Source of the DNA: Methanomassiliicoccales archaeon
Lineage (GTDB): Archaea; Thermoplasmatota; Thermoplasmata; RBG-16-68-12; SOIM01
Reading direction: 5' to 3'
NCBI GenBank assembly: GCA_030593885.1
Contig: JAUVGH010000002.1
Location: 21,922-85,921, forward strand
DNA: 64,000 nucleotides
The translations under genes and the position numbers were made by a program. Shown in pieces: positions 2,919 through 57,763 of this stretch; position 1 is the stretch's first letter; every line of letters begins with the position of its first letter. The notes below the pieces were generated by a model, which saw only the letters and a program-made list of their open reading frames with translations, was not told the origin of the DNA and searched no databases.

Positions 2919-5390
2919 TTGGTGGATATGGATGATAATTCGCTTTCGAAGTGGGCTTCCTGCTTCTTGGCCGCGCTCTTCTTCGTTTCTGTTTTTTCGA
3001 CGGCGACCTATGATGGGGGGAGAGGACCGAGTGCATATCTGACGCCCCCAGAGGGTCCTATGGCTGATGAACCCGTGACCTTCACCAACGTCTCGGATCA
3101 GGTTGGGTTCTCCGGAGTGAGAGGGAGAAGGTTCTCTTGGGCAGACTATGATAACGACGGGGACCAGGACCTTCTAATCAACGGCAAGAGGCTCTTCCGG
3201 AACAATGGGGCTCCAGGCTGGAGTTTCACTGATGTCACAACCGATGCGGGGCTTTACGGCTCTGTCTCCAGCGGCGCATGGGCGGATTACGACAACGATG
3301 GATGGTTGGATTTCTACGCCACCGCGGGAATAGGAAGTGAGGACATCCTGTGGCACAACAACGGTGACGGGACCTTTCAGAATGTGACGTATGCTGCAGG
3401 GAACGTGCTGGACAATCTTCCATCGGTATCCGCGGGCTGGGGAGATTACGATGCTGACGGCTTCGTGGACCTATATGTAGCGAATTACGAGTTGGATTAT
3501 GTGGGAATGATGGACATCCTGTGGCACAACAACGGGGATGGGACGTTCGAGAACGTGACCGTGGCTGCAGGAATCGATGACTACACGAATCCCCGTCATG
3601 GGAGAGGAGTTGCTTGGGGCGATTACGATAACGACGGAGACCTTGACATCTACATCTCGAACTACCGGTTGGTGCCCAACTATCTCTGGGAGAACAACGG
3701 TGACGGGACCTTCACTGATAGAGCTTCAGATCGGGGCGTGGAGGGAGATAGGACCCTCTACTCCGGAAACTGGTACTGGGGCCATACGATCGGTTCCGCC
3801 TGGGGGGACATTGACAACGATGGCGACCTTGACCTGTTCACCGCGAACCTCGTGCACAAGGACAACAAATGGCCCAATGTGAGGGGGCTGTTCTGCGACG
3901 ACTCCAAGTTCTACCAGAACAATGGTTCCGCCGAGAACTACAACTTCTATGATATCAGGGATCAGGCGGGGATACCAAAAATACCAGCAGGGGAAACAAT
4001 GTACGACCCGGCTTCTGGCTTGACCTATTACAGGGATGAACTGTATTCAAGTCCCGCCTTTGCGGATTATGACAACGATGGGGACCTGGACCTGTTCGTC
4101 ACTCAGGTGTACTATCTTTCCCACGGCGACTCCCACCTCTTCAGGAACAATGGGAACTCAACATTCACGAACGTCACCGACCAAGCTGGGGTCAAGGTGT
4201 GGAACTCTTGGGGAACGGCCTGGGCGGACTATGACAACGACGGGGATATGGACTTCGTGGTGGAAGGCTCCAGCTATCCGAATCCGTTCTATGAGGTGAG
4301 GCTTTACAGGAACGACGGGACACCCAACAAATGGTTGAAGATCAATCTCAGAGGTTGCTGGAGCAATTGGGCTGGTATTGGTGCAAGGGTCACGGTGACC
4401 AACGGAACTGTCACGCAGATGAGAGAAGTTGAAGGAGGCACTGGGACTGGCTCATCACAGAACTCGATACCTGTCGAGTTCGGGTTCGATGACTACTCTG
4501 GAACGGTCGACATACATGTCAGATGGCCCAATGGTCTTGTTCAGGATATCCTTGGAGTGACATTGAACCAGACATTGGATGTGACGGAGATCAGCTGCCT
4601 CGCCGCACCGACCGCCACTTCTGCAGGGCTATCAGGGACCACCGACCAGGATGTCCAGGTGATCTGGACACCATCGGTCGACGAGGGGTCGCCCTATTTC
4701 GATCATTATGCGATCTACAGAGGCACAACATACGACAAGAAAGGACAGGGATACCAGTTCATCGGTACAGCTCCAGCGGGGACCGCTGACTTCATTGACG
4801 CGGGGATCGGACATGGAGATCCCACCACATACTTCTATTATGTTCAGGTCAACAGCACGACTGGCTTCGGCGCCAGGAGCACGACGCAGGCGGTCAAGTA
4901 CACCAGGTATCTCGAAACGGGAGCCAATCTGGTCTCGATGCCTGTTCTCACTTCGGATTCATCATTGAGCTCAGTTCTCAATACGCTGACATGGGACAAG
5001 GCATGGACCTACGACGCTTCTGATATGGTTGATCCCTGGAAGGCGTTCGATGCTGCGAAGCCATTCAACGACCTTCTGTCGACCAACCCCACTCAGGGTC
5101 TGTGGGTGAACATCATTGCACCAGACTACTACACGATCGCCGGCACGGTCCCCACCAGAACGGACATCGCTCTTTCCGCAGGCTGGAACCTGATTGGATT
5201 CCCGGGATTCACCGGCACATATTCCGTCAATGACCTGATGGCGAGCACTGGAGCTGATAGAGTGGAGAGCTTCAACCAGACAAGTGCGCCTTACCATCTC
5301 CAGGCACTGAGCGGTTCATACAACCTTCTGGCCGGCCAGGCATATTGGATCAATGTCCCAACTGCCACCACTTTGACGGTAGAGAACTGA
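2919..5390 (+). CDS. Secreted FG-GAP/VCBS-repeat protein with ASPIC/UnbV-like domain, FN3 domain and shared C-terminal tandem module
   Basis: N-terminal hydrophobic signal. Repeated 'W(A/G)DYDNDGDxD' Ca-binding FG-GAP-like repeats, then an UnbV/ASPIC-like stretch (GTGSSQNS...VRWPNG), an FN3-like region and a C-terminal 158-aa module (4914-5387) shared with three neighbouring proteins. Confidence 0.8.
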   Translation: MVDMDDNSLSKWASCFLAALFFVSVFSTATYDGGRGPSAYLTPPEGPMADEPVTFTNVSDQVGFSGVRGRRFSWADYDNDGDQDLLINGKRLFRNNGAPGWSFTDVTTDAGLYGSVSSGAWADYDNDGWLDFYATAGIGSEDILWHNNGDGTFQNVTYAAGNVLDNLPSVSAGWGDYDADGFVDLYVANYELDYVGMMDILWHNNGDGTFENVTVAAGIDDYTNPRHGRGVAWGDYDNDGDLDIYISNYRLVPNYLWENNGDGTFTDRASDRGVEGDRTLYSGNWYWGHTIGSAWGDIDNDGDLDLFTANLVHKDNKWPNVRGLFCDDSKFYQNNGSAENYNFYDIRDQAGIPKIPAGETMYDPASGLTYYRDELYSSPAFADYDNDGDLDLFVTQVYYLSHGDSHLFRNNGNSTFTNVTDQAGVKVWNSWGTAWADYDNDGDMDFVVEGSSYPNPFYEVRLYRNDGTPNKWLKINLRGCWSNWAGIGARVTVTNGTVTQMREVEGGTGTGSSQNSIPVEFGFDDYSGTVDIHVRWPNGLVQDILGVTLNQTLDVTEISCLAAPTATSAGLSGTTDQDVQVIWTPSVDEGSPYFDHYAIYRGTTYDKKGQGYQFIGTAPAGTADFIDAGIGHGDPTTYFYYVQVNSTTGFGARSTTQAVKYTRYLETGANLVSMPVLTSDSSLSSVLNTLTWDKAWTYDASDMVDPWKAFDAAKPFNDLLSTNPTQGLWVNIIAPDYYTIAGTVPTRTDIALSAGWNLIGFPGFTGTYSVNDLMASTGADRVESFNQTSAPYHLQALSGSYNLLAGQAYWINVPTATTLTVEN

Positions 5391-5435: not shown

Positions 5436-6584
5436 ATGGTGATATACATGAAATCCAGAGGGAACGCCATGTGGGCAAAACTGTCAGCCGTTCTTCTTGC
5501 GTCGCTTGTTGTAGGTGTAGCATTCAGCGCGTTCCTTCCCGTCAGGGTGACCGCTGCAGAGGGCGAACCCAGGAAGGTGATGCTGGAGCTGATGACGGCC
5601 ACCTGGTGCGCATCATGTCCATACGCTGACGAGGCAGCGGATGATCTTTCAAGGGACTACGGACCAGAGAGATTCACCGTTCTGCAGTATCATGTTTCAC
5701 TCGATGGCCTGGACACTGTGGAAACCAACGAGAGACGCGACGATTACAATGCAGGACAGACCGGTCTCCCGGCGGCTTGGTTCGATGGGACAGAAGGCGT
5801 TCATTCGGTAGGAAGTCAGGAGGTCAAGTTCTTCTACGACCTGTACAAGGAGAAGATCGATGAGAGGTTAGACAGCCCCAGCCCGATCTCCATATCCCTG
5901 ATGCTGTCTGAATCATCGGGAGAGCTCACGGTCTCGGCTTCATTCGCGAAGTTGAGGACTATACTGGTGCCGGACACCATCCACGCGAGATTCGTCCTGT
6001 TTGAGAATTCGGTTCAGTACAACGCGATACTCTACAACTACGTGGTCAGGGACGTCGAGCTGAAGGATTTCCATTATGATGCACTGCCATACTCCGAGCC
6101 GGTGACTTTTGGGATCGAGTCGGGATGGGATTCCTCCAAGATGGGGGTTGCTGTTTACGTTCAAGCGGAGACGAATGGTGAGGTTCTCCAGTCCGCGAGT
6201 GGGGTTATTGGACCTGAGCCATCGGTCACGATCACTACCGACATAGACGGCAAGGAGATATCGGGCCCAACAACGATTGAGGGAACTGCCTCCGGTGACG
6301 TCGCATGGGTCGAGGTCAGGATTGATGATCAGCAATACACGATCGCAGATGGAACGACCTCCTGGAGCTTCGATCTGGACCCCAGTCAACTCTCGGCTGG
6401 AACGCACACGTTGAAGGTCAGAGCATACTCGAATTCACTGATCTATTCTGATATTGTGGAAGCGGAGTTTGAGACCACAAGCGACCTCTTGCTGTACATA
6501 CTGGTGGTCGTGATCATAGCAGTCGTCTTATTGGTCGCCGCACTCGTGGTCCGGAAGAGAGGGAAGGAAGTATCAGACATCTAG
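5436..6584 (+). CDS. Membrane-anchored extracytoplasmic protein with thioredoxin-like WCxxC domain (start may be 5448 or 5469)
   Basis: Signal/TM at the N-terminus. 'LELMTATWCASCPY' is a thioredoxin-like active-site motif (Cys codons at 5607-5609 and 5616-5618). C-terminal hydrophobic helix plus RKRGK tail acts as a TM anchor. The N-terminal ~250 aa are homologous to the start of the 7896..10469 protein. A TATA-like 'aatgaatatatcatt' lies upstream at ~5410. Confidence 0.6.
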   Translation: MVIYMKSRGNAMWAKLSAVLLASLVVGVAFSAFLPVRVTAAEGEPRKVMLELMTATWCASCPYADEAADDLSRDYGPERFTVLQYHVSLDGLDTVETNERRDDYNAGQTGLPAAWFDGTEGVHSVGSQEVKFFYDLYKEKIDERLDSPSPISISLMLSESSGELTVSASFAKLRTILVPDTIHARFVLFENSVQYNAILYNYVVRDVELKDFHYDALPYSEPVTFGIESGWDSSKMGVAVYVQAETNGEVLQSASGVIGPEPSVTITTDIDGKEISGPTTIEGTASGDVAWVEVRIDDQQYTIADGTTSWSFDLDPSQLSAGTHTLKVRAYSNSLIYSDIVEAEFETTSDLLLYILVVVIIAVVLLVAALVVRKRGKEVSDI

Positions 6585-6650: not shown

Positions 6651-7781
6651 ATGAGGATATCAATGCAACTCAAATCGGTGGCGATCTGCATTCTAGTCGT
6701 CAGCGCCATCGTTCCTTTGGCCGCAACCATCGTCCTCGCACAGGACGTCACGCCTCCTGAGATACTCGATGTAACGCTAACTCCGAAGTACCCTCAAGAA
6801 GCTGATTCGCACGTATTCACCGCAAGAATCATCGATTCTGAGAGCGCCATACAGGTTGTTGAGTTGGCCTATTGCCCACTGGGCCAGGCCTGCCTGTTCA
6901 CAGAGATGTTCGATCTTGATATGGACGATATCTACGACGCTACGGTAGGTCCGTTCATGACTGGTGACGTTTATGATTACTTCATTTCAACCAGGGACAC
7001 CGAGAGTAACTTGAACCAAACAGAAATCACCTGGGTTAAGGTCGCCGCTGACATAACCTTCGATTTCCAGCTGAGTGCCAGCATGATTGTGCAGGGCAAG
7101 AGCCTATGGGCAAACGGCACGGCGTTGTACGATGACAACACGACGACACCTGTGGAGACCTCAGACGTCGGCCTTACGATAGATGGAACGTCCGTAGATG
7201 TTACTGGCACCACCGACGACAAAGGAAATTTCAGCATCCCTTTCACCGCACCTGAGACTGCCGACGACTATGAGGTGAATGTCACGGTCACTAACAGATC
7301 TTTGTCCAATTACAGTCTGGCTCCTCTCAACACAACCCTGCCAGGAGACGCTGACGGGGACGGTCTCACTGATGATGAAGAGATTGCGCTTGGCACTGAT
7401 CCTCAGGATGCGGACACAGATGATGACGGACTGGACGATTATGAGGAAGTCAACGCGGGCGATGACGGTTACACAACCAACGCGACCAACAGCGATACGG
7501 ACGGGGACGGGCTCAATGACTGGGAAGAGATCAACGAAGGAGAGGACACTTTCCTCACTGACCCGACGAACGAGGACACGGACGGGGACGGAGCCACGGA
7601 CTCAGAGGACTGGGACCCTACCGACTCGAGCGTCCAGGAGGAACCTAAAGAAGAGGACCTGACCTGGATGTATTTGATGATCGTCGTAATCGTGGTCGTT
7701 GTTATTGTATTGGCTGTCTTACTTATGCGAAGAAGGTCTGGCGCAGAAACATTAGAACCTGAGGAAGAAGATTCATCCTAG
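6651..7781 (+). CDS. Secreted protein with thrombospondin type-3-like Ca-binding repeats (DxDxDGxxDxxE) and C-terminal TM anchor
   Basis: Signal peptide. Run of 'DADGDGLTDDEE / DTDDDGLDDYEE / DTDGDGLNDWEE / DTDGDGATDSED' repeats. C-terminal hydrophobic helix followed by RRRS. Confidence 0.7.
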   Translation: MRISMQLKSVAICILVVSAIVPLAATIVLAQDVTPPEILDVTLTPKYPQEADSHVFTARIIDSESAIQVVELAYCPLGQACLFTEMFDLDMDDIYDATVGPFMTGDVYDYFISTRDTESNLNQTEITWVKVAADITFDFQLSASMIVQGKSLWANGTALYDDNTTTPVETSDVGLTIDGTSVDVTGTTDDKGNFSIPFTAPETADDYEVNVTVTNRSLSNYSLAPLNTTLPGDADGDGLTDDEEIALGTDPQDADTDDDGLDDYEEVNAGDDGYTTNATNSDTDGDGLNDWEEINEGEDTFLTDPTNEDTDGDGATDSEDWDPTDSSVQEEPKEEDLTWMYLMIVVIVVVVIVLAVLLMRRRSGAETLEPEEEDSS

Positions 7782-7895: not shown

Positions 7896-10469
7896 ATGAG
7901 ATGGGGTTTCAAAAAGATGTGGGCTATCATCATAGTCTTTGCAATGTTCGGCATTGCATTTGTGGGCGTGGCAACTGAGAACGAGAATAACGCTGTTTCT
8001 TTGAACGACTCTGTTACAACTACGTTTTCGAACGAGGGGACCAGAGGTCCTGGTGCACCCAGAGTGGTGTTGATGGAACGCTTCACCAATGTTGGATGCG
8101 GTCCATGTGCGCCGGCGAGCATCAGGGAGGATCAATTCATCCAGGACCATAGTGTCGATGACCTGGCCGTGATCAAGTATCACATGTATTGGCCGGATGG
8201 AAACGACCCTATGTACCTCATGAACACCCAACCCCAACTGGATAGAAGGGACTTCTATGGAACGATCGGGTTCGTGCCCTATTCGATAGTGGACGGTCTT
8301 CTCCTGTCGGACGATGCCCAGCAGAATGGGAACTATCCGATCACTTACAGCCTCTACCAGAGGTTCTACGATCAGAGAAGAGCATTACTGAGCCCGTTCA
8401 CGGTAGATGTGGATGGTGTTCTCGGAGCTACCATGGGTACGGTTTCGGTCAACGTGACTGCAGTGGATACAGTTCCGGTTGGTGCCTTGAAGGTCAGATT
8501 GGCGCTGTATTTCAATGACGTGGAATATGCCACTTCACCGGGCAGCAATGGGGAGAAGAGGTTCGGATTCGTCTTCATGGACTTCATCCCGGACATCGAC
8601 GGAATGGACCTGACGATCTCGATGGGACAGACCGTGAACTTCATCCAGACATTCACTATCCCCACCGAGATACCGGCAGGCGGGGGAGATCCGGCAGTAC
8701 CGGTGGAGAGAGCTCAGCTGGGAGTGGTTGCTATGGTCCAGGACGAGGTCACGAGAGAGGTCCACCAGGCAGGTGTCCTCTCATTCACCGACCTGTCCAT
8801 TAATCCGATGGGGATACTGACAACCCCGTTGAACCCGAATCTAGGGGACTTGGTCGGCATTTCCGCAAGGGTCGTTAACAACGGTGAAGACATCAGCAAC
8901 GCATATGTCACTGCATACATCGATCAGGTTGGGGGAGATCCCATCGGTCCTCCGATATCCACGGGTCCGATGTTCAAGGGTCAGATGAAGATAGTCGGCC
9001 TCGGGGCATGGGACACCACGGGACAGCCGGGGGTCAGGAAGGTGGTCGCCAAAGTGGACATCGACGGTGACTACTACGAGTCCGACGAGGTGAACAACGT
9101 TGTCACCAAGGACGTGAACGTGGCAGCCCAGTTCGATGTCGGCATTTCCCAGATAGGTCCGTTCAATGAAGGGATGATGTATCCCATGAGCAACTACTCG
9201 TTGGACGGGAGCATAAAGAACTTCGGACAAAACGCGATGGGAGATTTCGATGTGGACATACAGCTGTACCAGCTCGGCCTGCCTGATGTTCCTGTTTCGA
9301 CCTTCATGGATGATATGGAAGGAGGCATTGGAGGTTGGACCGAGAGCGGCGGGAGTTGGGCGTATGGAGCCCCATCACCGGCACCCGGAGCGCATTCGGG
9401 AGCTAGTGTCTGGGCAACTGTGCTCACCGGCAATTACCCGTCAAATACGGTCGATTGGCTGTATTCCCCGATAGTGAGCATACCGTCGAGCGCAAGTTCC
9501 GCGAGCCTGAGCTTCTGGAACTTCTATTCGTTCCAGTTTGCGTCAAAACCACCCAATGATGTGCACTACGATTGCGGGAACTTGTGGATATCCACAGACA
9601 TGGGTGTCACATGGGAGATGGTGGAACATTTCAAGGCCAACAATGGTGCTTGGAATCAGGAGACATACGATCTGACTTCATATGTCGGGCAATCAGTGAG
9701 ATTCGCCTTTGAACTCGCTGCAGATGGAAGCGGAGGCCAATTGGGATGGTACATAGATGACTTCGAGGTGACCTCAATGGTTCCGACGGAGACACTGGTC
9801 TGGAACACGACAACCAGGATGTCGACCATCCTTGCATCTGGCGGAGTTGATTCGCTCATTTGGAACCAGAAGATCATCACTGGAGGCCCACACAAGCTAT
9901 ACGTATGGACGCCTCTTGGAGGAGATCAGAACCCTGACAACGACCTGAGCACACTGACATTCGACATCGATGACACCAAGTGGAGGAACGTGGTGACCCC
10001 CGTAGCGTCACTGGTTTCGTCCCCCTTGACACTCACCGAGACCAACATCGCGAACATTGTTGCACCTTCAGCGCCTGCCTTGACCTCGGTCAGGACCTAC
10101 GACGCAGTAACAGGCACGTGGTTGGGATACGATCCGGCCAAGCCCGCCAACAGCCTTTCGGCAGTGGATCACAGGATGGGCATGTGGGTAACGAATCCTT
10201 CAGGTGGATACATAGACTTCACCGGAACGATACCGGGCATAACTGTTGACATACAGCTTGAAATCGGGTGGAACCTCATAGGATATCCATCAATGACGGA
10301 CAGGACCGTCGCAGACGCTCTGTCCACGATCACATACGAAAGGATAGAAGGGTTCGATGCGACAGGACCGTATCATCTGAGGGAACTGACTGGCAGCGAT
10401 TGGATGACGGCTGGACAGGGCTACTGGATACACGTATCCTCGCAACAGATGTGGTCAGTGAACGCTTAG
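7896..10469 (+). CDS. Secreted multidomain protein: thioredoxin-like CxxC domain, CARDB-like domain, choice-of-anchor-J/MAM-like domain, and the shared C-terminal tandem module
   Basis: The ORF track starts at 7809, but the SD-preceded ATG at 7896 (MRWGFKKMWAIIIVFAMFGIA, TM/signal) is more plausible. 'NVGCGPCAP' is a Trx-like motif (Cys codon at 8097). A CARDB-like region follows ('VVAKVDIDGDYYESDEVNNV'), then a choice-of-anchor-J/MAM-like region ('GGWTESGG...LWISTDMGVTWE...GWYIDDFEV'). The C-terminal module is at 9990-10466. Confidence 0.75.
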   Translation: MRWGFKKMWAIIIVFAMFGIAFVGVATENENNAVSLNDSVTTTFSNEGTRGPGAPRVVLMERFTNVGCGPCAPASIREDQFIQDHSVDDLAVIKYHMYWPDGNDPMYLMNTQPQLDRRDFYGTIGFVPYSIVDGLLLSDDAQQNGNYPITYSLYQRFYDQRRALLSPFTVDVDGVLGATMGTVSVNVTAVDTVPVGALKVRLALYFNDVEYATSPGSNGEKRFGFVFMDFIPDIDGMDLTISMGQTVNFIQTFTIPTEIPAGGGDPAVPVERAQLGVVAMVQDEVTREVHQAGVLSFTDLSINPMGILTTPLNPNLGDLVGISARVVNNGEDISNAYVTAYIDQVGGDPIGPPISTGPMFKGQMKIVGLGAWDTTGQPGVRKVVAKVDIDGDYYESDEVNNVVTKDVNVAAQFDVGISQIGPFNEGMMYPMSNYSLDGSIKNFGQNAMGDFDVDIQLYQLGLPDVPVSTFMDDMEGGIGGWTESGGSWAYGAPSPAPGAHSGASVWATVLTGNYPSNTVDWLYSPIVSIPSSASSASLSFWNFYSFQFASKPPNDVHYDCGNLWISTDMGVTWEMVEHFKANNGAWNQETYDLTSYVGQSVRFAFELAADGSGGQLGWYIDDFEVTSMVPTETLVWNTTTRMSTILASGGVDSLIWNQKIITGGPHKLYVWTPLGGDQNPDNDLSTLTFDIDDTKWRNVVTPVASLVSSPLTLTETNIANIVAPSAPALTSVRTYDAVTGTWLGYDPAKPANSLSAVDHRMGMWVTNPSGGYIDFTGTIPGITVDIQLEIGWNLIGYPSMTDRTVADALSTITYERIEGFDATGPYHLRELTGSDWMTAGQGYWIHVSSQQMWSVNA

Positions 10470-12186: not shown

Positions 12187-15100
12187 ATGAGGCGGGGTAG
12201 TAAAGTGGTCACAGCCCTCGACAAGATCAAGTCGACGGTCATGGTGACGTTGCTAGTCCTTGGAACGTTCGTTTTGGCGGTAAGTGTACCTGGTGAGGAA
12301 CCACCAGACATACCAGGCTGGCCGAACGACGGCGACTGGATTAACTATACGTATCGAGGAGAGAGAATTAGGGATTGGGAAGACAAGCCCTATGAGAACG
12401 ACCCGACACATGGGATAGCCAATGTCCAGCCGAAGGCGGTTGACATCGCATCTGGAGTTGACAAGAGTGGGGGAAATGCCGCATCTAATCCGGGCAACTA
12501 CACTTCTGTTCAATACCTATATGATGATGTTGACGGTGATAGCGACGGCTGTTCCGATATCGATGACGACTGGCTCTTCCTCAGGCAGAGAATTGCCGGG
12601 GATCCCAGACACGGTGGACAGTACGCGTACAAAGCGTACCACTGGGACATATTGCTGGAAGTTGACGGTGACCAGTGGAGCGAGTTCGTGGTCGACCTGA
12701 ACGGTGGAAATGGGTACTACAAGTTCGGAACCGTAGGTGTGTACTACAGCGACACTGACGACTACGAGTATGATCCAGATAATGATTGGGTCTGGCTCCA
12801 GCCAGCGACCGGGAAGAAGAACTTGTTCACCAACGCCCGGCTCATTGACTATGATGACGATGATGATGATAACGACCAATGGTGGATCGAGTACAAGGTT
12901 CCGATAACAGCCTTCACGGATCGGGACGATAACCAGCTGCTCTGTGCGGACACCGACTTCCTTCTGTTTTTCAGCACCTCTGCCTCAGCAACAAACCCTC
13001 TGCAGAAGGATTGGATGGGAGAGTTCGTTTTCGGTGAGCCGGCCAATATCACGGTTGTCAAGACAGTGGAGGAGGACATAGTAAAGCCGGGAGATACTCT
13101 TCACTACAAGATCTATTACAACAACACTGGAGAGTTCAATGCGGGCAATGTGTGGATCAACGATACGATACCTGACTACACGACGTTCAAAGAATCGAAT
13201 CCCAACTACAATTCGAGTTCTGGACAGACATACAGATGGCATTTCACGGACGTTGAACCTGGGAATCACACCATCTATCTGAATGTGACAGTGGACACGG
13301 ATGTGCCAGATGGCGAGGTACTTCGGAACGTTGCAGTTCTGAACTACACGGACACCGATGACAACGAGCTACCTGGCTCAGAGGATGAGACCGAGAATCC
13401 TGTTGCAGGCCCTTTCTTGAAGATGGCAAAGGAAGTTGATGTCGCAACTGCCGACCCAGGCGATGTGCTGCATTATGAGATCATCATGCAGAACACTGGA
13501 GGCGGTGGGGCGTACAACGTTACAGTAAACGATACCATACCTGAGCATACCACTTTCGATAGTTCATATCCAGACTATGATTCGGTAGATGGCAGAACCT
13601 ACACATTCATCATAGACAAGATTGCTGGAAAGACAAACTTCACCATTTTCCTGAACGTGACCGTTGATGCCTACACAGATGATGGGACGGTACTTGTCAA
13701 CTATGCGACAGCAGACTATAGGGACGCGAATGGCAACGTGTATGAAAGACTCTATGACTGGGCCAATGTGACGGTGACCGCTCCCATAATGGACGTCACA
13801 AAGATCGCTGATGTTACAACCGCTGACCCGGGCGATGAGATCACGTACACGCTCACCTATGACAACACTGGCACTGGCCAGGCTTCAGATGTGGTGATTG
13901 AGGACACGATACCGGAGCACACAACATTCGTCAGCTCCACACCCAATTACGACGAGGTTGATGGCAGAACCTACACCTGGAATATCGGTCTGGTCGATGG
14001 AGGAGATTCCGGAACCATTGCAATCACTGTCAAGGTTGACGCAGGAACAGCTAATGGTACGATTCTGACCAATGATGTCACTCTGGACTACGATGACGCT
14101 AACGGGAATCCGTACCCACAGGAAACTGACTCTGTGGATGTAACAGTGATCGCTCCTATTCTAACCCTTTCGAAGACGGCGAGCGTCGCCGAGGCCAACC
14201 CTGGAGACACGATAACGTACTCCATAAATTACGAGAACACTGGAAGCGGCAAAGCCACGAACGTATACGTCAACGACACGATTCCCAACGAGGTGACGTT
14301 CGTCACTTCATCGCCTGCATATACCAGCAAGAGCGGGAACACTTACATCTGGGCAATCGGTGACGTATGCGCTGGATGCAGCGGCATCATAACCATACAG
14401 GTCACGGTAAACGCGGCCGTTCCTGACGAAACGGTGATGAGGAACACAGTCACCCTGGACTACTCAGATGCAAATGGAAATCCGTACGCACAACTGTCCG
14501 ACTATGTGGACGTGACCGTCACAGCGCCAATAATGACTATAACGAAGGTCGCTGACGTTGGGACGGCGGACCCAGGAGATGAGATTACTTACACCCTCAC
14601 CTACGAGAACACAGGCACTGGCGATGCAGGAGGAGTGATCGTAAAGGACACCATACCCACAGACACGATATTCGTTAGTTCGAACCCTGCATACTCCAGC
14701 AAGACTGGAAATACATACACATGGAACGTTGGAACTGTGACAGCAGGCAGCAGCGGAACAATCACGATAGTGGTCAAGGTCAAGGCTGGAATAGCTGATG
14801 AGACGGTCCTTCTCAATACGGCAGTCCTGTACTACGAAGACGTCAACGGCAATCCATATCCGACCAAGGAAGACACTGCTGAAGTGACCGTAACCTCACC
14901 GATCATGACAGTTTCGAAGACGGCTGACGTCACGACCGCGGACCCAGGGGACGAGATAAACTACACCCTAAGCTACGATAACACAGGAACCGGAAACGCC
15001 AAGAACGTCAAGATAATCGATACTTTGCCGAGTGATGTGACATTCGTTACCTCCTATCCGGCATACAGCAGCGCCAGCGGGAACGTCTACACATGGAATG

Positions 15101-18100
15101 TTGGAGACGTTTGCGCAGGTTGCGGAGGAGAGATATACGTCATCGTCGAAGTGAACGCAGGAGTGGCTGATGGCTCAGTGCTCAGGAACTACGTCAAGAT
15201 GGAGTACACCGATAACAATGGCAATTCCCTGCCAGATGAGACCGACTACGTGGACGTGACAGTCACCGCACCTGTGATGACGATAACGAAGACAGCCGAT
15301 GTGACCACTGCTGATCCTGACGACCAAGTGGTCTACACGCTCTTCTACGAGAACACCGGTACGGGGGACGCCACCAATGTTGTGGTGAAGGACACCATTC
15401 CGAGCGAGGTGGATTTTGTCAGCTCAACGCCGACCTATGACAGCCAGAGCGGCAATGTCTACACGTGGAACGTAGGAGATGTTGGTGCTGGCGAGAACGG
15501 TACCATAACCATCACGGTCAAGGTCAAGGCCTACACACCAGACAAGACAGTGATTACGAACTATGTGACCTTGGACTACGATGATGCCAATGGAAATCCG
15601 ATTCCTCAAGAGAGCGACAGCGTCGATGTTACAATCACCGCACCGGTGATGACGATCTCAAAGACGGCGGATGTATCAGAGGCAGATCCGGGCGACGAGA
15701 TAACATACACGATAACCTACACCAACTCCGGAACTGGTCTGGCAACAGATGTTGTCGTCACTGACACCATACCGGCGGACACAACATTCGTCAGCTCAAC
15801 GCCAACATACGATAGCCAGAGCGGGAACACATACACGTGGAACGTCGGGGATGTCTCAGCCGGAAGTTCTGGGATAATAACAGTTGTGGTCAAGGTCAAG
15901 GCGGGAACGCCTGACGAGACCGTCCTCACGAACACGGTCACCCTGGATTACGACGATGCCAATGGCAATCCACAAGCCCAACAGAACGACAGCGTCGATG
16001 TTACGGTCACCGCACCGATTATGACAGTCAGCAAGGTCGCGGACGTGGCAACAGCGGATCCAAGTGACCAGATCACCTACACGATTGAATACAAGAACAC
16101 CGGAAGCGGGGACGCGACCAATGTGAAGGTAGTTGATACGATACCGGCAGACACTACTGCTGTCAGTGCGACACCCATGTGGGACTCGTCTTCCGGAGAT
16201 GATTTCACCTGGAACATCGGAAGCGTGTCAGCAAGAGGGTCTGGAACGATCACCTTTGTGGTCAAGGTCGACGTTGGAACCCCGGACGGAACACTGCTCA
16301 GGAACTGGGCCACTCTTTCATACGCAGACGCCAACGGGAACGGACTCCCAGATGAGAAGGACTACGCAGATGTCACTGTCACGGCACCCATCATGACGAT
16401 CAGCAAGATAGCGGATGTCTCAACCGCCGATCCGTCGGACATCATAACATACACGCTGACCTACGAGAACAATGGCAATGGTGAAGCGACCAATGTCTGG
16501 GTCAACGACACCATACCCGCAGACACAGACTTCGTCAGCTCAACACCAGGATACACAAGCATGAGCGGGAACACCTACACATGGTTCATCGCAAGTGTTG
16601 CAGCCAATTCAGACGGAACGATAACGGTGAAGGTCAAGGTCAAGGTCGGAACACCTGACGGAACGGTTCTCAGGAACACGGTCACCCTGGACTACGGTGA
16701 TGCCAACGGAAATCCACAGGGCCAAGAGAGCGACTACGTTGATGTCCTGGTCACAGCACCAATATTCAGCTTCAGCAAGACAGCAGATGTCGTGGAGGCC
16801 GACCCAGGCGATTGGATCAACTACACCCTCTACTACAAGAACACTGGAACCGGAGACGCCACGAACGTGTACATCAACGACACGATACCGTCCGATACAA
16901 CGCTAGAGAGCACCAGCCCAGCTTACACATCCTCCTCAGGGGACACGTACATATGGAATCTGGGAACGGTGACGGCGGGCGAGGAAGGCAACATCATAAT
17001 CACGGTCACCGTCGATGCCTTCACACCAGACGGCACATTGCTGAGGAATACTGCCACTCTTGACTACTCGGACGCGAGCGGCAATCCCTATCCACAGATG
17101 GATGACTACGCCGACGTCACAGTGACCGGTCCTGAGATGACTATCAGAAAGGTCGCGGATGTGACAACGGCTGATCCAGGAGATGACATCACCTACACTA
17201 TTACATACAAGAACAACGGAGCTGGAACGGCGACCGATGTCGTCGTTGAGGACACAATACCGGCAGATACAGTGTTCGTCAGCTCAACGCCAACTTATGA
17301 TAGCCAAAGCGGGAACACTTACACCTGGTTAATCGGTGACGTGTGCGGCGGATGCGACGGCACCATAGAGATCGTGGTAAGGGTAAAGGCTGGAACGCCT
17401 GACAAGACCGTTCTCACAAACACGGTCACACTCAACTACGACGATGCGAACGGAAATCCACAATCAGAGGAAAACGATAGTGTGAATGTCGTGGTGACCG
17501 CACCGGTGATGACCATCAGCAAGGTGGCAGACGTTACGACAGCGGATCCAGATGATGAGATAACCTACACGATAACATACAAGAACACCGGAACCGGAGA
17601 GGCAACGAACATCTACATAAACGACACCATTCCGCCGGATACGACATACGTCAGTTCCAATCCCACCTACACCAGCGCCAGCGGGGATACATACACATGG
17701 TTCATAGCATCCCTCGGAGCAGGCCAGAGCGGGACCATAGAGCTGGTCGTCAAGGTCGATGTCGGTGTGCCCGACAAGACCCTCCTGAGGAATCAGGTAA
17801 CACTTGACTACGCAGACGCCAACGAGAACCCACTGCCCAGGCAGTCCGACAAGGCGGATGTCACCGTCACGGCGCCCGTGTTCACCTTCAGCAAGAAGGC
17901 TGATGTCAGCACGGCAGACCCGGGCGATGAAATCGTTTACACCATCGAATACGAGAACACTGGGACTGGAGAGGCGACCGACGTATATGTCAATGACACA
18001 ATACCAGATGATGTCGACTTCGTTAGTTCTAACCCAGCCTATACGAGCGTGAGCGGAAACACGTACACGTGGTTTATGGCGAGCGTTGCAGCAGGAACTG

Positions 18101-21100
18101 GTGGGACGATAACCATTGTGGTGGAAGTCAAAGCCGGAATTCCGGATGAAACGCTTCTGCGTAACACCGCCACGCTTGACTACTCGGATGCCAACGGCAA
18201 TCCATATCCACAGATGAAGGACTGCGCAGATGTCAGGGTCACTGCACCCATTATGACCATAACCAAAACGGCCGACGTCAGTACGGCCGATCCCGACGAT
18301 GAGATCACCTACACCCTCGCATACGAGAACAAGGGGACTGGTGAGGCAACCGATGTATACATCAACGATACCATTCCCGCAGATGTGGATTGGGTCAGCT
18401 CCAATCCTGGATACACGAGCGTTAGCGGCCTTACCTACACATGGTTCTTCGCCAGCCTTGGAGCGGGTACGAGCGGAACCATAACGATAGTGGTGAAGGT
18501 CAAGGTGGGTACGCCTGATGGCACAATCCTGACCAACGATGTCACACTCGATTACTCGGACGCAAACGGCAATCCGTTGCCCCAGGAGAGCGACAGTGTG
18601 AATGTCAAGGTGACCGCCCCGATAGTGACAATCGCAAAGACGGCAGACGTGTCAACAGCCGATCCAGGAGATGAGATAACCTACACAATATACTACAAGA
18701 ATACCGGAACTGGGGAGGCAACTGACCTCTACATCAACGATACGATACCGACAGACACCGAATACGTGAGTTCGAGCCCCGTCTACGATGAAGTGAACGG
18801 TCTAACATATACATGGAAGATCGCAAGCCTCGCGGCGGGTGCCGACGGAACAATAACCCTCGTGGTGAAGGTCAAGGTCGGGACACCTGACGAGACGCTC
18901 TTGAGGAACAGGGTGACGCTCGACTATTCGGATGCGAACGGGAATCCATATCCGCAGAAGGATGACACGGAAGATGTCGTCGTGACCGCACCGGTCATGG
19001 CCATCAACAAGGTAGCGAACGTGGCTACGGCTGACCCAGGCGATTTCGTAAACTACACAATCTCGTACGAGAACAGCGGCACAGGCATCGCAACGAACGT
19101 ATGGATAAACGATACCATACCTGCAGATACCACCTTCAAGGAATCCACACCAAACTATGACTCGGTCTCAGGGGACACGTACACCTGGTTCTTCTCAACA
19201 GTGGCTGCGAAGTCCAGCGGGGAGATCCACATCAAGGTGCAGGTGGATGCCGGAACAGATGACGGCACGATCCTCAGGAACACGGTCACCATGGACTACG
19301 CGGATGCCAACGAGAACCCGTACACCCAACTCTCCGATTACGTGGACGTTCTCGTGACAGCTCCGGTATTGAACCTGACCAAGTCGGCAGACGTCTCGAC
19401 AGCAGACCCAAGCGATACGATAACATACACGGTGGAGTTCGAGAACTCCGGCACCGGGAATGCCACGGACGTGTACGTCAATGACACCATTCCAACGGAT
19501 GTGGAGTTTGTCAGCTCCAATCCAGTCTATCTATCGAAGTCTGGGAACACGTACACTTGGTACTGGGCGGTGGTAGCGGCAAACACCACGGTCACAATAA
19601 CCATTGTTGTGAAGGTCAAGACCTACACGCCAGACGAGACGGTTCTGCACAACATAGCGACACTGGACTACGCTGACGCCAACGGCAACCCATACCCGAC
19701 TGAGATGGCATGGGCAGACGTGACAGTCACCGCTCCCATTCTGGAGATCACGAAGACGGCGGACGTGACAACCGCCGATCCAGGAGATGAGATAACCTAC
19801 ACAATATACTACAAGAATACCGGAACTGGAGAGGCAACTGACGTCTATATCAACGACACGATACCTGATGACGTGGACTTCGTGAGTTCAAGTCCGAACT
19901 ACACGAGCGTCAGCGGGAAGACCTACACATGGTTCTTCTCCAGCTTGGGAGCCGGAGTGGATGGAACCATAACCATTACAGTTGAGGTCAAGGTCGGCAC
20001 GCCGGATGAAACACTGCTCAGGAACCTGGGGACACTTGACTTCTCCGATGCTAACGGCAACCCATATCCGAGGCTCAGAGATTACGCAGATGTTGATGTA
20101 ACCGCACCAGTCATGGAGTTCTCCAAGACGGCGGACGTGGCTACCGCAGACCCAGACGATGAGATCACCTACACATTGACATACAAGAACATTGGAACAG
20201 GAGTGGCAACGAACGTCAAGATAACAGACACCATACCCGGCGACGTTGTGTTCGTGAGCTCGACTCCGAACTACACCAGTGTCAGTGGGAACACATATAC
20301 CTGGGACATTGGAACACTAAATCCAGGCGACAGCGGGACCATCACGATAGTTGTCAGGGTCGAAGTTGGCACGCCAGACGAGACTCTGCTCAGAAACTTC
20401 GCCACGCTCGACTACTCGGACGCCAATGAGAACCCGTACGAACAGATGAAGGACTATGCGGATGTCGACGTGACCGCGCCTGTCATGGAATTCTCCAAGA
20501 CTGCAGACGTTACGACAGCGGATCCAGATGATGAGATAACCTACACTATCACCTACAAGAACACAGGAACCGGAGTGGCAACGAACGTCAAGATAACAGA
20601 CACCATTCCAGGAGATGTTGTGTTCATATCCTCGACCCCGAATTACACGTCGGTATCTGGCAATACGTACACCTGGGACATAGGAACTCTGAATCCAGGA
20701 GACAGTGGGACCATAACCATAGTGGTGAAGGTCAAGGTTGGCACGCCGGACGAGACCTTGCTACGCAACGTGGCAATCCTGTACTACTCGGACGCCAACG
20801 AGAATCCGTACACGCCGATTGAGGATCATGCAGATGTCGATGTGACGGCACCTGTTATGAGATTCTCCAAGACAGCGGACGTGACGACTGCCGATCCAGA
20901 CGATGAGATCACCTATACAATAACATACGAGAACGTGGGAACCGGAGACGCAGCCAACGTGAAGGTCACCGACACAATACCAGCTGATGTTACCTTCGTT
21001 AGCTCGACACCGACATATACGTCGGTATCTGGCAATACGTACACCTGGGACATTGGAACGGTGACAGCTGGCTCTAGCGGTACCATCACAATAACCGTCA

Positions 21101-24100
21101 AGGTAAAGGTGGGCACGCCGGACGAGACCTTGCTACGCAACGTGGCAATCCTGTACTACTCGGATGCCAATGAGAATCCGTACACACCAATTCAGGACAC
21201 AGCTGACGTGACAGTCACAGCGCCTGTCATGGAGTTCTCCAAGACGGCTGATGTCACAACAGCAGATCCAGACGATGAAATCACTTACACGATATCCTAC
21301 GAGAACGTTGGGACCGGAGTCGCCAAGAACGTAAAGATAACCGACACCATACCAGCCGATGTTATCTTCGTGAGCTCGACTCCGAACTACACCAGCGTCA
21401 GTGGGAACACATATACATGGGACATTGGGACTCTTAATCCAGGAGATAGTGGGACCATAACGATAGTGGTGAAGGTCAAGGTGGGAACGCCTGACAAGAC
21501 CCTGCTGAGGAATGTGGCCACACTGGACTACTCGGACGCTAACGAGAACCCGTACGACCAGATGACCGACCACGTGGATGTGACCGTCACAGCGCCTGTC
21601 ATGGAGTTCTCGAAGTCAGCGGACGTTACTACCGCAGACCCTGACGACCCGATCGTGTACACCATAACGTACGAGAACGTCGGGACAGGAGACGCGTCCA
21701 ACGTGAAGATCACAGACACCATACCAGCCGATGTTGTGTTCGTGAGCTCGACCCCGGCCTACACCAGCGTCAGTGGGAACACGTACACGTGGGACATTGG
21801 GACCCTGGCCGCTGGCAGCGGAGGAACAATCACCATCAACGTGAAGGTGAAGGTCGGAACACCTGATGAGACCCTGCTGGAGAACGTGGCGACACTCTAC
21901 TACGCCGACGCGAACGGCAACGACTACACTCCCTTGACAGACAACGCGTTCGTTAAGGTCACAGCACCAGTGATGGAATTCTCCAAGACAGCGGACGTAT
22001 CAACTGCAAACCCAAGCAGTCTGATAACCTACACCATAACCTACAAGAACATTGGAACCGGAGACGCCACGAGTGTCCTGATCAGTGATGAGATACCGGA
22101 GGATGTGGAGTATGTCTCTTCAACGCCCACGTACACCATGAAAGTGAATCTGACATACATCTGGAACATCGGAGACGTTGCCGCGGGAACGGGAGGAAGC
22201 ATCACCTTGGTCGTCAAGGTGAAGGCCTACACACCCGACAAGACGCTGCTCCACAACGTGGCCACCCTTTACTATGAGGATGCGAACGGCAACGGCTACA
22301 CCCCAATCGAAGACCACGCGGACGTCATAGTGACCGCACCTGATATGAGGTTGGTGAAGAGCACAGACGTGACAACTGCAGATCCAGGCGACGAGTTTGT
22401 CTACACGATCCACTACGCGAATGTTGGAACGGGAGTGGCGACACACGTGACAATCGTCGACACCATACCGGCTGACACGACCTTCATATCTTCGACGCCT
22501 GCTCCGGACAGCGTTGTCGGCAACGTGTACACCTGGTACATCGGAACCGTGAATCCAGGCGATTCTGGAGACATCTTCATAACCGTTAGAGTGAACCTCT
22601 TCACACCTGACAAGACACTGCTGCGAAACGTGGTCACGCTGGACTATGACGACGCGAACAGCAACCCATACCCGACGCTGAGAGACAGCGTTGATGTCAA
22701 GGTGACCGCTCCTGTCATGGAGTTCTCCAAGTTCGCAAACGTATCCACTGCTGATCCCGGTGACCTGATAACCTACACTATCACTTACGACAACGTCGGC
22801 ACTGGCAAGGCAACCGAAGTGAAGATCACAGACACTCTGCCTGTGGGGGTGGAGCTGGTCTCCGCCACGCCATGGTACACCTCGGTATCCAACAGGACCT
22901 ACACGTGGGACATCGGCGACCTCGGGCCTGGCGAAGGAGGTACCATAATCATTGTCGTCAAGGTGACGATAGGAACGGCGGACAGGACTTTGCTGCACAA
23001 CTCGGCGACCCTGTACTACGCGGACGCCAACGGAAATGACTACCCACCCATGGAGGACAGCGCGGATGTGACCGTAACAGCACCTGTCATGACCTTCTCC
23101 AAGTCGGCAGATGCCACTACGGCTGATCCAGGCGACCAGATAACCTACACCCTGACCTACAAGAACATCGGCACAGGCTGGGCATCATTGGTTGTGATTG
23201 TGGATACTATTCCTGATGATGTGGTCTTTGTCAGCTCTAGCCCGATGTATGACAGTGTCAGCGGCACTGAGTATACCTGGAATCTGGGCGACGTCGCACC
23301 TGGCACTGGCGGAACCATAACGATCATCGTGAAGGTCAAGGTGGGCACACCAGATGAGACACTCTTGCACAACGAGGCGACTCTGGACTACTCTGATGCC
23401 AATGGGAACTTCATCGAGAGATTGAGCGATTATGCGGACATCACAGTGACCGCGCCCATAGTGCGCATCACCAAGTCGGCTGACGTCTCAGAGGCTGACC
23501 CAGGTGACATGATCATCTACACGATAACCTACGAGAACGTCGGAACGGGCTGGGCAACGCTCGTAGAGATCGTGGACACCATACCTGCAGAAACCACATT
23601 GGTCGCCACCAATCCACGGTACACCAGTATGAGTGGGAATGATTACGTCTGGTCCATTGGCAATCTGGCTCCTGGCGACGGTGGCACCATTGAGATCAAG
23701 GTCATTGTGAATCCTGGTACGCCGGACAAGACCTTGTTGCATAATGTGGTCACTTTGGATTGGGCAGACCGCAACGGGAATTACTATCCGCAGTTGAGCG
23801 ACTACGCAGACGTTATTGTCACAGCACCTGTGATGACCCTTGAGAAGTCCGCGGGAGACACTGAAATTGCCGCATACGTGGTGGCAGACTTCAGGCTGAG
23901 AATCGCCGGAGAAAAGTGGCACGATGTGAGACTCAACCTCTACAGCGGCAACCAGTCAGTGAGATTCGCGTCAATCACACGATATCCGGGCTCTCCCGAC
24001 GACCAATCCGTCACCCTGTATGACGTGAAGATAAATCTCCTTGCCAACTTCACGGCCGTCATCGAATACACACCATCGGACGACCCGATCAACGGCCAAA

Positions 24101-44008: not shown

Positions 44009-45436
44009 ATGGCGTGTTCAAGAGGATTCGAGGAGAATTCCTTGCCTGACACTGTGGTCATAGGTTCAGGGCCTGGCGGTTACGTTGCCGCCATACGGTG
44101 CGCCGAGTACGGACACTCTGTCGCGGTCGTGGAGATGGGGGACATTGGGGGGGTCTGCACGAACACTGGCTGCATTCCCACCAAGACCATGCTCGAAAGC
44201 GCAAGACTCGTGAGGGAGATCAAGAGGGGGGCTAGACACGGCATAACCGTCAGCAATCTGAAGATCGATTTCACCAAGGTCATGAAGCGCAAAGAGTCAG
44301 TCGTTTCCAGAAACTCGAAGGGCATTCAATACCTCCTAGACGACAACAAGGTCGAGACCATACGAGGCAAGGCGTTCATTGTGGACCCAAACCACGTGAG
44401 AGTGGAGACCGAGGACGGTTCAAGGGAACTTGAGGCGAAGTACATCATCATAGCCACTGGATCGAAGGAGAGGCAATTGCCCAACATCCAGATGGACGGG
44501 GACAGGATACTGGGTTCGGAGCAGATGCTGACCATCAATGAGCTGCCATCCTCGCTTCTGATAATCGGTGGGGGTGCGATAGGTGTCGAGTTTGCCCAAG
44601 CGTTCACATCTTTTGGAACAAAGGTGACCATTGTCGAGCTGATGGATAGAATACTCCCCATGGAAGACCCATCGATAGGAAAGGTCATCGCCAGGGTCTT
44701 GAAAAGGCTGCATGTCGACATATTCACAGGGTCCAAGGTGGAGAGTCTGGAAACGACCAGCTCGGGTGTGCTGGCCAAGGTCTCTGGTGAATCCGACCTC
44801 GAGATCGAGGTCGAGAAGGTCCTGCTCTCTGTTGGACGAGTTCCTGCAATTGATAAAGATGTCATCGGGAAGGATGTGGAATATGACAACAGGGGGATCA
44901 AGGTCAACGAGGAGATGCAGACCTCGGTGCCCAACATCTACGCGATAGGTGATGTGACAGGAAAGGTGATGCTGGCCCATGTGGCATCCCAACAGGCAGA
45001 GGTGGCGGCGAACAACATCTGCGGGATAGAATCAAAGATGGATTACACGCTGGTTCCAAGCTGCATCTATACAAGTCCGGAGGTCGCCAGTTTTGGATTG
45101 GGGCAGGAAGATGCGGAGGAGAGATACGGGGACGTCATCGTCGGCGAGTTCCCACTCGTCAGGAGCGGAAGGGCGAGAACGTCCGGGGAGACAGAGGGCT
45201 TCGCCAAGATCATAATGAGGTCAGACACCGAGGAGATACTCGGGGCTCAGATCGTTGCTCCCAGGGCCACGGACATGGTCCAAATCCTTCTACTGGCCAA
45301 GGAGAAAGGAGTTCCGATAAGCGATATAGCCAAGATAATCTACCCCCATCCGACGTTCATTGAGATCATCAGAGAGGCCGCCTTGGAGATGAAGAAGAAG
45401 GAAAAGTGCAGGCAGAACAAGAAGAACAAACAGTGA
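44009..45436 (+). CDS. lpdA: Dihydrolipoyl dehydrogenase (pyridine nucleotide-disulfide oxidoreductase, L-protein type)
   Basis: 'GSGPGGYVAAIR' FAD motif, redox disulfide 'CTNTGCIPTK', an NAD motif, and a C-terminal dimerisation 'HPT' motif. Confidence 0.85.
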   Translation: MACSRGFEENSLPDTVVIGSGPGGYVAAIRCAEYGHSVAVVEMGDIGGVCTNTGCIPTKTMLESARLVREIKRGARHGITVSNLKIDFTKVMKRKESVVSRNSKGIQYLLDDNKVETIRGKAFIVDPNHVRVETEDGSRELEAKYIIIATGSKERQLPNIQMDGDRILGSEQMLTINELPSSLLIIGGGAIGVEFAQAFTSFGTKVTIVELMDRILPMEDPSIGKVIARVLKRLHVDIFTGSKVESLETTSSGVLAKVSGESDLEIEVEKVLLSVGRVPAIDKDVIGKDVEYDNRGIKVNEEMQTSVPNIYAIGDVTGKVMLAHVASQQAEVAANNICGIESKMDYTLVPSCIYTSPEVASFGLGQEDAEERYGDVIVGEFPLVRSGRARTSGETEGFAKIIMRSDTEEILGAQIVAPRATDMVQILLLAKEKGVPISDIAKIIYPHPTFIEIIREAALEMKKKEKCRQNKKNKQ

Positions 45437-45508
45437 TGACTTTTCGAACATTGTTACACCTCCTCAAGAAAACGTTTAATACGCGTTCAGAATTCACACA
45501 AACTGAAG

Positions 45509-55597: not shown

Positions 55598-55809
55598 TTT
55601 AACCAAAGGCTAAGATTCATTTTGCGAACATGCACTACTCGATGAAAGATATGTTTGACCTCCTCATACTGCGTCAAACTCGAGTCTCATGTGTCTAATG
55701 CATGTCCAATCCGGGTGAAGATTATCATATCAGAGAAGTCGTGATGCAAATGTCTTAATAGCTCAAGAGTATTTATGGCTAGAATTTCGCCAGTCGTGGG
55801 GGAGCGTAC

Positions 55810-57751: not shown

Positions 57752-57763
57752 CGGGGGCTATCT

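Follow-up and report, generated by a model that had tools for sequence, protein, structure and literature searches.

A 64-kb stretch of DNA from a Methanomassiliicoccales archaeon (64,000 nt, hereafter the window) encodes two surface-type proteins, here called p1 and p2, each of which carries a Cys-x-x-Cys (CxxC) motif shortly after an N-terminal hydrophobic segment. The locus raises the question of whether these motifs belong to thioredoxin-like domains facing the outside of the cell and, if so, what such domains would do there. Our analysis indicates that both proteins begin with the same two-domain module, a predicted thioredoxin fold followed by a beta-sandwich. The function that we favour, at a probability of about 0.6, is that the modules are surface-displayed thiol-disulfide oxidoreductases, serving as Omp28/HBP35-type heads of archaeal surface proteins. 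The parts of the two genes are given below from the N- to the C-terminus of each protein, with positions in the window, amino acid (aa) numbers and the basis of each assignment.

5436–6584, + strand: p1, predicted 382-aa type-I membrane protein (open reading frame (ORF), Pfam, hydropathy and charge)
5436–5558, + strand: p1 putative signal peptide, with K6, R8 and K15 in its n-region, a hydrophobic core and the end '...VRVTA' before 'AEGE' (hydropathy segment aa 10–41, positive flank on its N-side)
5577–5870, + strand: p1 predicted thioredoxin-fold domain, aa 48–145 (AlphaFold2 model, Foldseek, profile matches)
5607–5618, + strand: p1 CxxC, C58-A-S-C61 (translation, orthologue alignment, model)
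5769–5771, + strand: p1 Pro112, candidate cis-proline immediately before beta3 (alignments, sampled modules, and the model, where it precedes strand 74–77)
5886–6206, + strand: p1 Omp28-type beta-sandwich, aa 151–257 (seven strands in the AlphaFold2 model; Foldseek match to 2R2C)
6219–6419, + strand: p1 Big_7 immunoglobulin (Ig)-like spacer, aa 262–328 (Pfam PF17957, E 3.2e-12)
6474–6584, + strand: p1 C-terminal transmembrane (TM) helix and predicted cytoplasmic basic tail RKRGKEVSDI (hydropathy 3.49, basic tail; kept in orthologues)
7896–10469, + strand: p2, predicted 857-aa secreted protein (ORF, orthologues, NCBIfam, Pfam)
8067–8381, + strand: p2 predicted thioredoxin-fold domain, aa 58–162 (AlphaFold2 model, pLDDT 88 and pTM 0.88; Foldseek match to 5Y1A)
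8097–8108, + strand: p2 CxxC, C68-G-P-C71, which has the classical thioredoxin dipeptide (translation)
8397–8783, + strand: p2 Omp28-type beta-sandwich, aa 168–296 (AlphaFold2 model; Foldseek match to 2R2C, TMt 0.70–0.83)
9897–10466, + strand: p2 C-terminal domain (tblastn E 1e-22 to 1e-47 to two other proteins of the window)

In p2, a signal segment precedes the module, and a CARDB-like and a choice-of-anchor-J/MAM-like domain lie between the beta-sandwich and the uncharacterised C-terminal domain (NCBIfam choice_anch_J, E 1.4e-9, and Omp28_seleno, E 1e-10; the Pfam matches to MAM and CARDB were weak). The p2 start at 7896 fits its orthologues of 857–859 aa, which begin at the equivalent position; a longer ORF from 7809 is therefore unsupported. 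The peptides that an earlier, sequence-only reading of this DNA had set side by side were both found. Read in frame, 5568–5915 gives 'PRKVMLELMTATWCASCPYADEAADDL...VLQYHV...' (p1 aa 45–160), and the p2 peptide 'PRVVLMERFTNVGCGPCAP...VIKYHMY' is present from about 8055, the quoted position 8060 missing the reading frame by one or two bases. A direct comparison of p1 with p2 by BLASTP gave 28% identity over 170 aa (E 2e-10) within a shared N-terminal module of about 220 aa, and tblastn across the window detected two copies of this module only, those of p1 and p2.

Structure prediction gave confident models for both modules, with a mean predicted local distance difference test score (pLDDT) of 92.0 and a predicted template-modelling score (pTM) of 0.90 for p1, and 88.3 and 0.88, respectively, for p2. 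The secondary-structure elements follow the same order in the two models, beta1-alpha1-beta2-alpha2-beta3-beta4-alpha3 and then a seven-strand beta-sandwich. The CxxC is located at the N-terminus of helix 1 (model residues 19 and 22 in p1, with the helix starting from 22; 23 and 26 in p2, with the helix starting from 26), and a proline stands directly before beta3 at the position expected for the cis-proline of thioredoxins, which makes it a candidate cis-proline by position. In the alignments of the p1 and p2 modules with their homologues (A1, A2 and A4), the Pro112 position was invariant in A1 and A2, and a proline occupied it in 99% of 316 sampled modules. For both N-terminal domains, a thioredoxin fold is thus a high-confidence prediction.

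Comparison with known structures points in the same direction. The top Foldseek match in the Protein Data Bank (PDB) was HBP35 (5Y1A) over the whole module, for p1 with an E value of 1e-10 and a template-modelling score normalised to the query (TMq) of 0.74, and for p2 with an E value of 5e-13 and a TMq of 0.71. The second match, again for both, was the Omp28 domain 2R2C, which covers the sandwich (for p1, E 2e-5 and a score normalised to the target, TMt, of 0.70), and the first domain of p1 also matched the ancestral thioredoxin 3ZIV (TMt 0.65). When the family profile was run against PDB sequences, 2AXO (Atu2684, a DUF1223 protein) was found at 5.9e-9, thioredoxins at about 1e-4 and 5Y1A at 1e-4. 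Searches of Pfam, NCBIfam and the PDB with single sequences had given sub-threshold hints (DUF1223, E 0.011; Omp28, 1e-4; 2AXO, 0.018), so that profiles and structure prediction were needed. The fold, the canonical placement of the CxxC and these matches bear out the thioredoxin-like CxxC domains that the sequence-only reading had proposed; a non-thioredoxin fold with the CxxC as a metal site, which would have spoken against them, was not what the models gave. We also considered whether the invariant Glu of the 'L-E-x-F-T' motif corresponds to the buried Asp26 of E. coli thioredoxin and rejected this equivalence, as the HMMER alignment is one residue out of register.

On which side of the membrane do the modules lie? 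Both follow an N-terminal hydrophobic segment, as had been noted before, and in both this segment is preceded by Lys/Arg residues, those of p2 being R2, K6 and K7. Because p1 has, besides its signal peptide, a C-terminal TM helix followed by a basic tail, it is, as judged from sequence, a type-I membrane protein whose module faces outwards; the signal peptide is probably cleaved at the VTA/AEGE junction. Hydropathy revealed no C-terminal or other TM segment in p2 beyond the N-terminal signal or anchor segment, so that of the two proteins described as anchored, p1 alone, with its TM helix and RKRGK, has a demonstrable membrane anchor. The p2 module most probably lies outside the cell as well. 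The partner domains found in p1, p2 and the TSP3-repeat protein encoded between them are all of extracellular types (Big_7, CARDB, choice-of-anchor J/MAM and TSP3). The extracytoplasmic location claimed for the modules therefore agrees with the topology predicted here, which gave no sign of a cytoplasmic location. 

The closest structural relative, HBP35 of Porphyromonas gingivalis, is a 35-kDa haemin-binding cargo of a type IX secretion system (T9SS) that has the same head of thioredoxin domain plus Ig-like sandwich and a W-C-x-x-C-P motif, and that is displayed on the surface after Sec export. It differs in sequence, with 16–18% identity to p1 and p2, and in how it is held: the anchor of HBP35 is the T9SS C-terminal domain together with anionic lipopolysaccharide (A-LPS) in a diderm bacterium, whereas p1 is held in its archaeal membrane by the Big_7 spacer and TM helix, and p2 has CARDB/MAM-like domains and its uncharacterised C-terminal domain instead. 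To our knowledge, HBP35 is the sole biochemically characterised relative of the p1 and p2 modules. It reduced insulin faster than E. coli thioredoxin, the C48S/C51S substitution abolished this activity, and hbp35 complemented an E. coli dsbA mutant (PMC2907840).

Two further families share the module. The Omp28 family (PF11551; NF033782, 'Omp28 family outer membrane lipoprotein'; NF045500, 'Omp28-related selenoprotein'; PDB 2R2C) has a sandwich like that of p1 and p2 and shares with them the motifs L-x-E-x-F-T-x3-C-x-x-C, YH, DP, R..Y and P...DG; the p2 module matched PF11551-bearing proteins at E 2.6e-21 with 97% query coverage. Some of its bacterial relatives arrange module, CARDB and adhesin domain in the order seen in p2, for example P0102, in which a module, CARDB, Cleaved_Adhesin and a T9SS tail reproduce the p2 architecture with another C-terminal end, and P0045, with a module, CARDB, an adhesin/MAM-like domain and again a T9SS tail. 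Unlike Omp28 proteins, p1 and p2 lack a lipobox Cys and a T9SS tail (Por_Secre_tail), and their archaeal host lacks an outer membrane. The DUF1223 family (PF06764; Atu2684, PDB 2AXO; SCOP c.47.1.19), for which we know of no biochemical function, provided the best PDB sequence match of the family profile. The Atu2684 segment 'ELFTSQGCASCPPADEA' stands against 'ELMTATWCASCPYADEA' in p1, YH...D...R..Y...P motifs are common to both, and some p1 orthologues carry a precomputed PF06764 match. Consistent with our models, DUF1223/2AXO has been classed as a thioredoxin fold (PMC3091736). Among the members of our alignment, Pfam assigned Omp28 to 12 of 16 and DUF1223 to 9 of 16; the Pfam Omp28 model starts about 45 residues after the CxxC, covering the second half of the thioredoxin domain and the sandwich, and the DUF1223 model spans the module.

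DsbA, TlpA/ResA/CcmG and exported archaeal thioredoxins resemble p1 and p2 in having an exported thioredoxin fold with a CxxC, their cis-Pro loop has a putative counterpart in the candidate cis-proline of p1 and p2, and p2 shares the CGPC motif. Thiol-disulfide exchange outside the cytoplasm is understood mechanistically from these enzymes. The sequence match to TlpA was marginal (E 0.025), and the helical insertion of DsbA is absent from the p1 and p2 models, which have two short helices between beta2 and beta3. These enzymes have neither the added beta-sandwich nor the residues that are conserved specifically in the family of p1 and p2.

An exhaustive search with a joint p1 and p2 profile retrieved 15,141 cluster representatives up to an E value of 1e-3, of which 1,756 lay at or below 1e-30. 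Named members come from Bacteroidota, Bacteroidales, Chitinophagales and Ignavibacteria and bear names such as 'Omp28-related outer membrane protein', 'T9SS type A sorting domain-containing protein' and 'choice-of-anchor J domain-containing protein'; many of them have the T9SS tail PF18962. Most of the family are T9SS surface proteins of Bacteroidota, and a few of its branches are archaeal. Its proteins are 263–3613 aa long among the top 150 matches and as a rule carry the module at their N-terminus or close to it, sometimes in tandem, showing that fusion to big surface proteins is the norm in this family. Other archaeal-looking members are P0042 (two tandem modules and a TM segment, on a contig that appears archaeal), P0115 (a lipobox, FN3, a NosD beta-helix and the module) and P0126 (a module with CPPC, three Big_7 domains, TSP3 repeats and a TM segment). 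The view that such fusions are unusual in archaea is thus only partly right, since the two-domain module is a recurrent one.

The two modules had also been called paralogous. Homologous they are, and close kin they are not: identity on profile columns is 24%, and the modules of dozens of other proteins, many of them bacterial with T9SS tails, are nearer to p2 (31–39% identity) than p1 is, and on these grounds a recent, local p1/p2 duplication was rejected. The closest non-orthologues of p1 carry its 'WCxxCPYAD' motif (e.g., P0255/P0256 and P0166). From sequence comparison, p1 (the 'WCxxCPYAD' type) and p2 (the 'CGPCA' type) are old, distant paralogues belonging to two different subfamilies. 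A recent horizontal transfer of p2 was considered and rejected, the GC content of p2 (0.538) being unremarkable against about 0.53 around it; an old transfer is possible. The fold, the motif and the module were known before: structures have been solved, one member has been characterised biochemically, and orthologues are called thioredoxin-like by some existing pipelines (on some p1 orthologues, the JGI label is 'thiol-disulfide isomerase/thioredoxin'), so that p1 and p2 open no new category. The new elements are modest ones, namely two divergent subfamily members from an archaeon, with anchoring of an archaeal type, and a conserved pairing of p1 with the TSP3-repeat protein. Nevertheless, two 'hypothetical' archaeal surface proteins can now be placed in a structural family with the experimentally characterised HBP35, and a module usually seen as a Bacteroidota outer-membrane/T9SS feature is found also at the head of surface proteins in uncultured Thermoplasmata whose habitats are anoxic.

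We favour the oxidoreductase function because the activity of HBP35 depends on its CxxC, because the cysteines are invariant in the p1 and p2 orthologues and because p2 has the CGPC motif. Both cysteines were present in all p1 and p2 orthologues examined, including 13 aligned orthologues of p1; the p2 orthologues have CGPC or CPPC. The CxxC supplies both of the cysteines that p1 has in its 382 aa and two of the three in p2. Across the wider family, 91% of 312 sampled modules had both cysteines, a sample (P0020–P0273) that includes some near-identical cluster members. In the proposed mechanism, the modules would act as HBP35 does in vitro, at the external side of the cytoplasmic membrane, that of p1 held by its Ig spacer and C-terminal TM helix and that of p2 heading an adhesin-like protein of several domains. 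A substrate disulfide would be attacked by the N-terminal Cys of the motif, or the oxidised CxxC by a thiol, and the second Cys would resolve the mixed disulfide. Candidate substrates are Cys pairs of the cell's own surface proteins, such as the C-x5-C of the neighbouring TSP3 protein and the CxGC loops of a giant surface protein encoded downstream; alternatively, external disulfide or polysulfide compounds may be used. Should they prove active, the modules would be candidate agents of thiol-disulfide chemistry outside the cell, in an anaerobic archaeon that has no obvious machinery of the Dsb type encoded nearby. NF045500 defines, at least by name, a selenoprotein subfamily, which would fit redox chemistry; a literature search on Omp28 and selenoproteins and on surface thioredoxins of Thermoplasmata found nothing relevant.

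Several observations weigh against an enzymatic role. About 9% of the sampled modules have no full CxxC (SxxC in 11, TxxS in 9 and SxxS in 4 of the 312), and other residues are conserved above the cysteines, namely E12 (100%) and P76, G82, Y69, D55, E154 and Q216 (each >97%), with R65 also conserved at >=95%. Since non-Cys residues outrank the cysteines and some modules do without the motif, the core function of the family may not be thiol chemistry, and its primary conserved activity may, judging from these sequence patterns, be something other than thiol-disulfide exchange. The dipeptide inside the CxxC drifts freely across p1 orthologues (AS, AG, AT, VT, GS, LG and SG), which is atypical of enzymes with a tuned redox potential. 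No CcdA/DsbD, VKOR or DsbB was found among the approximately 30 ORFs of the window scanned against Pfam. Omp28 is described as a surface adhesin or receptor and not as an enzyme. Neither protein, moreover, reaches the curated models: p1 scored 21.3 bits against a cut-off of 150 for NF033782 and 16.2–18.0 bits against a gathering threshold of 30.7 for DUF1223 PF06764, p2 scored 41.5 against 200 for NF045500, and the Pfam scan gave no PF11551 match for either. The two are therefore divergent members of the Omp28/HBP35/DUF1223 superfamily and not core members of its curated models.

The conservation pattern, the loss of the CxxC in some modules, the unconstrained dipeptide and the lack of a redox partner gene among the scanned ORFs would all suit a non-catalytic surface module, that is, an adhesin, ligand-binding or scaffold head of the sort proposed for Omp28, in which the CxxC forms a structural or redox-sensing disulfide. 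So would the adhesin-like architectures that the module heads (CARDB, Cleaved_Adhesin, MAM, TSP3 and Big_7) and the haemin binding of HBP35, which maps to M135–P344 and is independent of the CxxC (PMC2907840). We take this reading as a serious alternative, though a less likely one: it does not account for two cysteines that are invariant in every p1 and p2 orthologue, for the CxxC-dependent activity of the homologue HBP35, or for the near-universal proline at the cis-Pro position, and the modules without a CxxC are mostly extra copies in tandem-module proteins, comparable to the inactive b domains of protein disulfide isomerase. Haem or metal handling is less probable still, whether as haemin capture in the manner of HBP35 or as chelation of Cu, Hg or As by the CxxC at the surface. 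CxxC motifs are able to bind soft metals, the closest solved structure is that of a haemin-binding protein, and two NosD/beta-helix proteins are encoded nearby; however, the haemin site of HBP35 lies apart from its CxxC and, at the low identity to HBP35, need not be retained in p1 and p2, no haem or metal transport genes adjoin p1 or p2, and the NosD-type beta-helix is a generic surface domain. Finally, the shortness of the motif by itself would allow a chance CxxC, and one may also think of a cytoplasmic, non-exported thioredoxin. Homology over about 220 aa (E 2e-10 between p1 and p2, and 1e-21 to Omp28-family proteins), the confident fold models, the signal segments, the C-terminal TM helix of p1 with its positive-inside tail and the extracellular-type partner domains effectively refute both.

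For the oxidoreductase function, a concrete lead to a substrate comes from the genes around p1. Four genes for secreted proteins lie on the same strand, encoding an FG-GAP/ASPIC protein, p1, the TSP3-repeat protein and p2, and the giant protein is encoded beyond them. The three genes other than p1 and p2, and the counterparts of the TSP3 gene in related contigs (L001, L003 and L004), are as follows.

2919–5390, same strand as p1: FG-GAP/ASPIC protein, secreted
6651–7781, + strand: TSP3-repeat protein, 376 aa, membrane-anchored (Pfam TSP3_bac)
12187–25860: giant protein, 4557 aa (signal at its N-terminus, TM segment at its C-terminus)
L001 11204–12325, L003 11214–12341 and L004 11212–12303: counterparts of the TSP3 gene

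The TSP3-repeat protein, whose repeats are of the calcium-binding type, is encoded directly after p1 in L001–L004, including the complete genome CP070767. Its N-terminal domain has a Cys pair, C75/C81 (Y-C-x5-6-C), which is invariant down to 48% identity, and in P0126 and P0166 a CxxC module is fused with Big_7 and TSP3 repeats in a single protein. The conserved p1-TSP3 gene pair and these fusions suggest a specific partnership, and the pairing of p1 with a protein bearing such a Cys pair makes for a concrete substrate hypothesis.

The sequence-only reading had pointed to paired cysteines in the repeats of the giant protein, and these were confirmed. Three repeats have 'IGDVC(A/G)GC', in the wider form 'W.IGDVC(A/G)GC.G', with Cys pairs at aa 728/731, 976/979 and 1720/1723; two further Cys pairs are present at 4065/4070 and 4278/4291. 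The L001 orthologue of the giant protein has >27 CLIPPER/DUF11 (PF01345) matches. Taken furthest, p1 and the TSP3 protein would be the two components of a dedicated surface device that switches disulfides outside the cell of an anaerobic archaeon, independently of any DsbB/VKOR/CcdA-type partner; p2 would represent another type of module, one that Bacteroidota proteins also have. In such a device, the tethered ecto-thioredoxin p1 would form, cleave or rearrange the C-x5-C disulfide in a calcium-binding adhesin, perhaps also acting on the CxGC loops in the giant protein, and redox equivalents would come from the sulfidic environment. We regard this extension as distinctly doubtful.

Gene order around p1 was compared with that in related genomes. 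At least 19 p1 orthologues (53–93% identity) were found in metagenome-assembled genomes (MAGs) of Thermoplasmata/Methanomassiliicoccales, labelled as Methanomassiliicoccales, Thermoplasmata or Methanobacteriota archaeon, and one is encoded on a complete chromosome, CP070767.1 (1.99 Mb). The order in L001 and L002 is AlaRS (minus strand), FG-GAP, p1, TSP3, (RlaP), p2, DHH (minus strand) and the giant CLIPPER/DUF11 gene. The same order holds in L004 up to the DHH gene, with no CLIPPER/DUF11 giant called there, and CP070767 retains the p1-TSP3 pair with p2 not adjacent. An RlaP (PF10127) gene lies directly downstream of the TSP3 gene in L001 (12351–13157), L002 (4279–5085) and L003 (12405–12944). 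In L001 and L002 it is thus flanked by the TSP3 gene on one side and the p2 orthologue on the other, L003 has no adjacent p2 orthologue, and RlaP is absent from the corresponding position in the window and in L004. Archaeal housekeeping genes are present elsewhere in the window, encoding eIF-6, an archaeal Pus10, ribosomal protein S19e and a geranylgeranyl reductase.

The uncharacterised C-terminal domain of p2, about 150–260 aa long, is common to three proteins of the window: the FG-GAP/ASPIC protein (4608–5387), p2 (9897–10466) and a NosD/beta-helix protein (32642–33421). It ends in '...GWNLIG(Y/F)P...GYWI(N/H)V...' and had no match in Pfam or NCBIfam. All three carriers are secreted proteins without a C-terminal TM segment, and the domain may be specific to the lineage and serve in surface attachment or sorting.

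Farther downstream, cytoplasmic redox genes encode a dihydrolipoamide-dehydrogenase-like Pyr_redox_2 protein (a pyridine-nucleotide disulfide oxidoreductase; 44009–45436) and a Fer4/CCG (HdrD-like) pair (45509–46884), and one-carbon genes at 52414–55187 encode both glycine-cleavage P-protein subunits; we saw no link between the genes of 44009–46884 and 52414–55187 and the surface proteins. A search of the window detected no tRNA genes. Its GC content falls to 0.45–0.47, against about 0.53, at 55800–60000, where five ORFs have no Pfam match (55810–56313, 56868–57248, 57245–57751, 57764–58549 and 59316–59678). This low-GC region may be foreign or mobile DNA, and an RNase H/RVT_3 ORF is located beyond it at 62866–63291.

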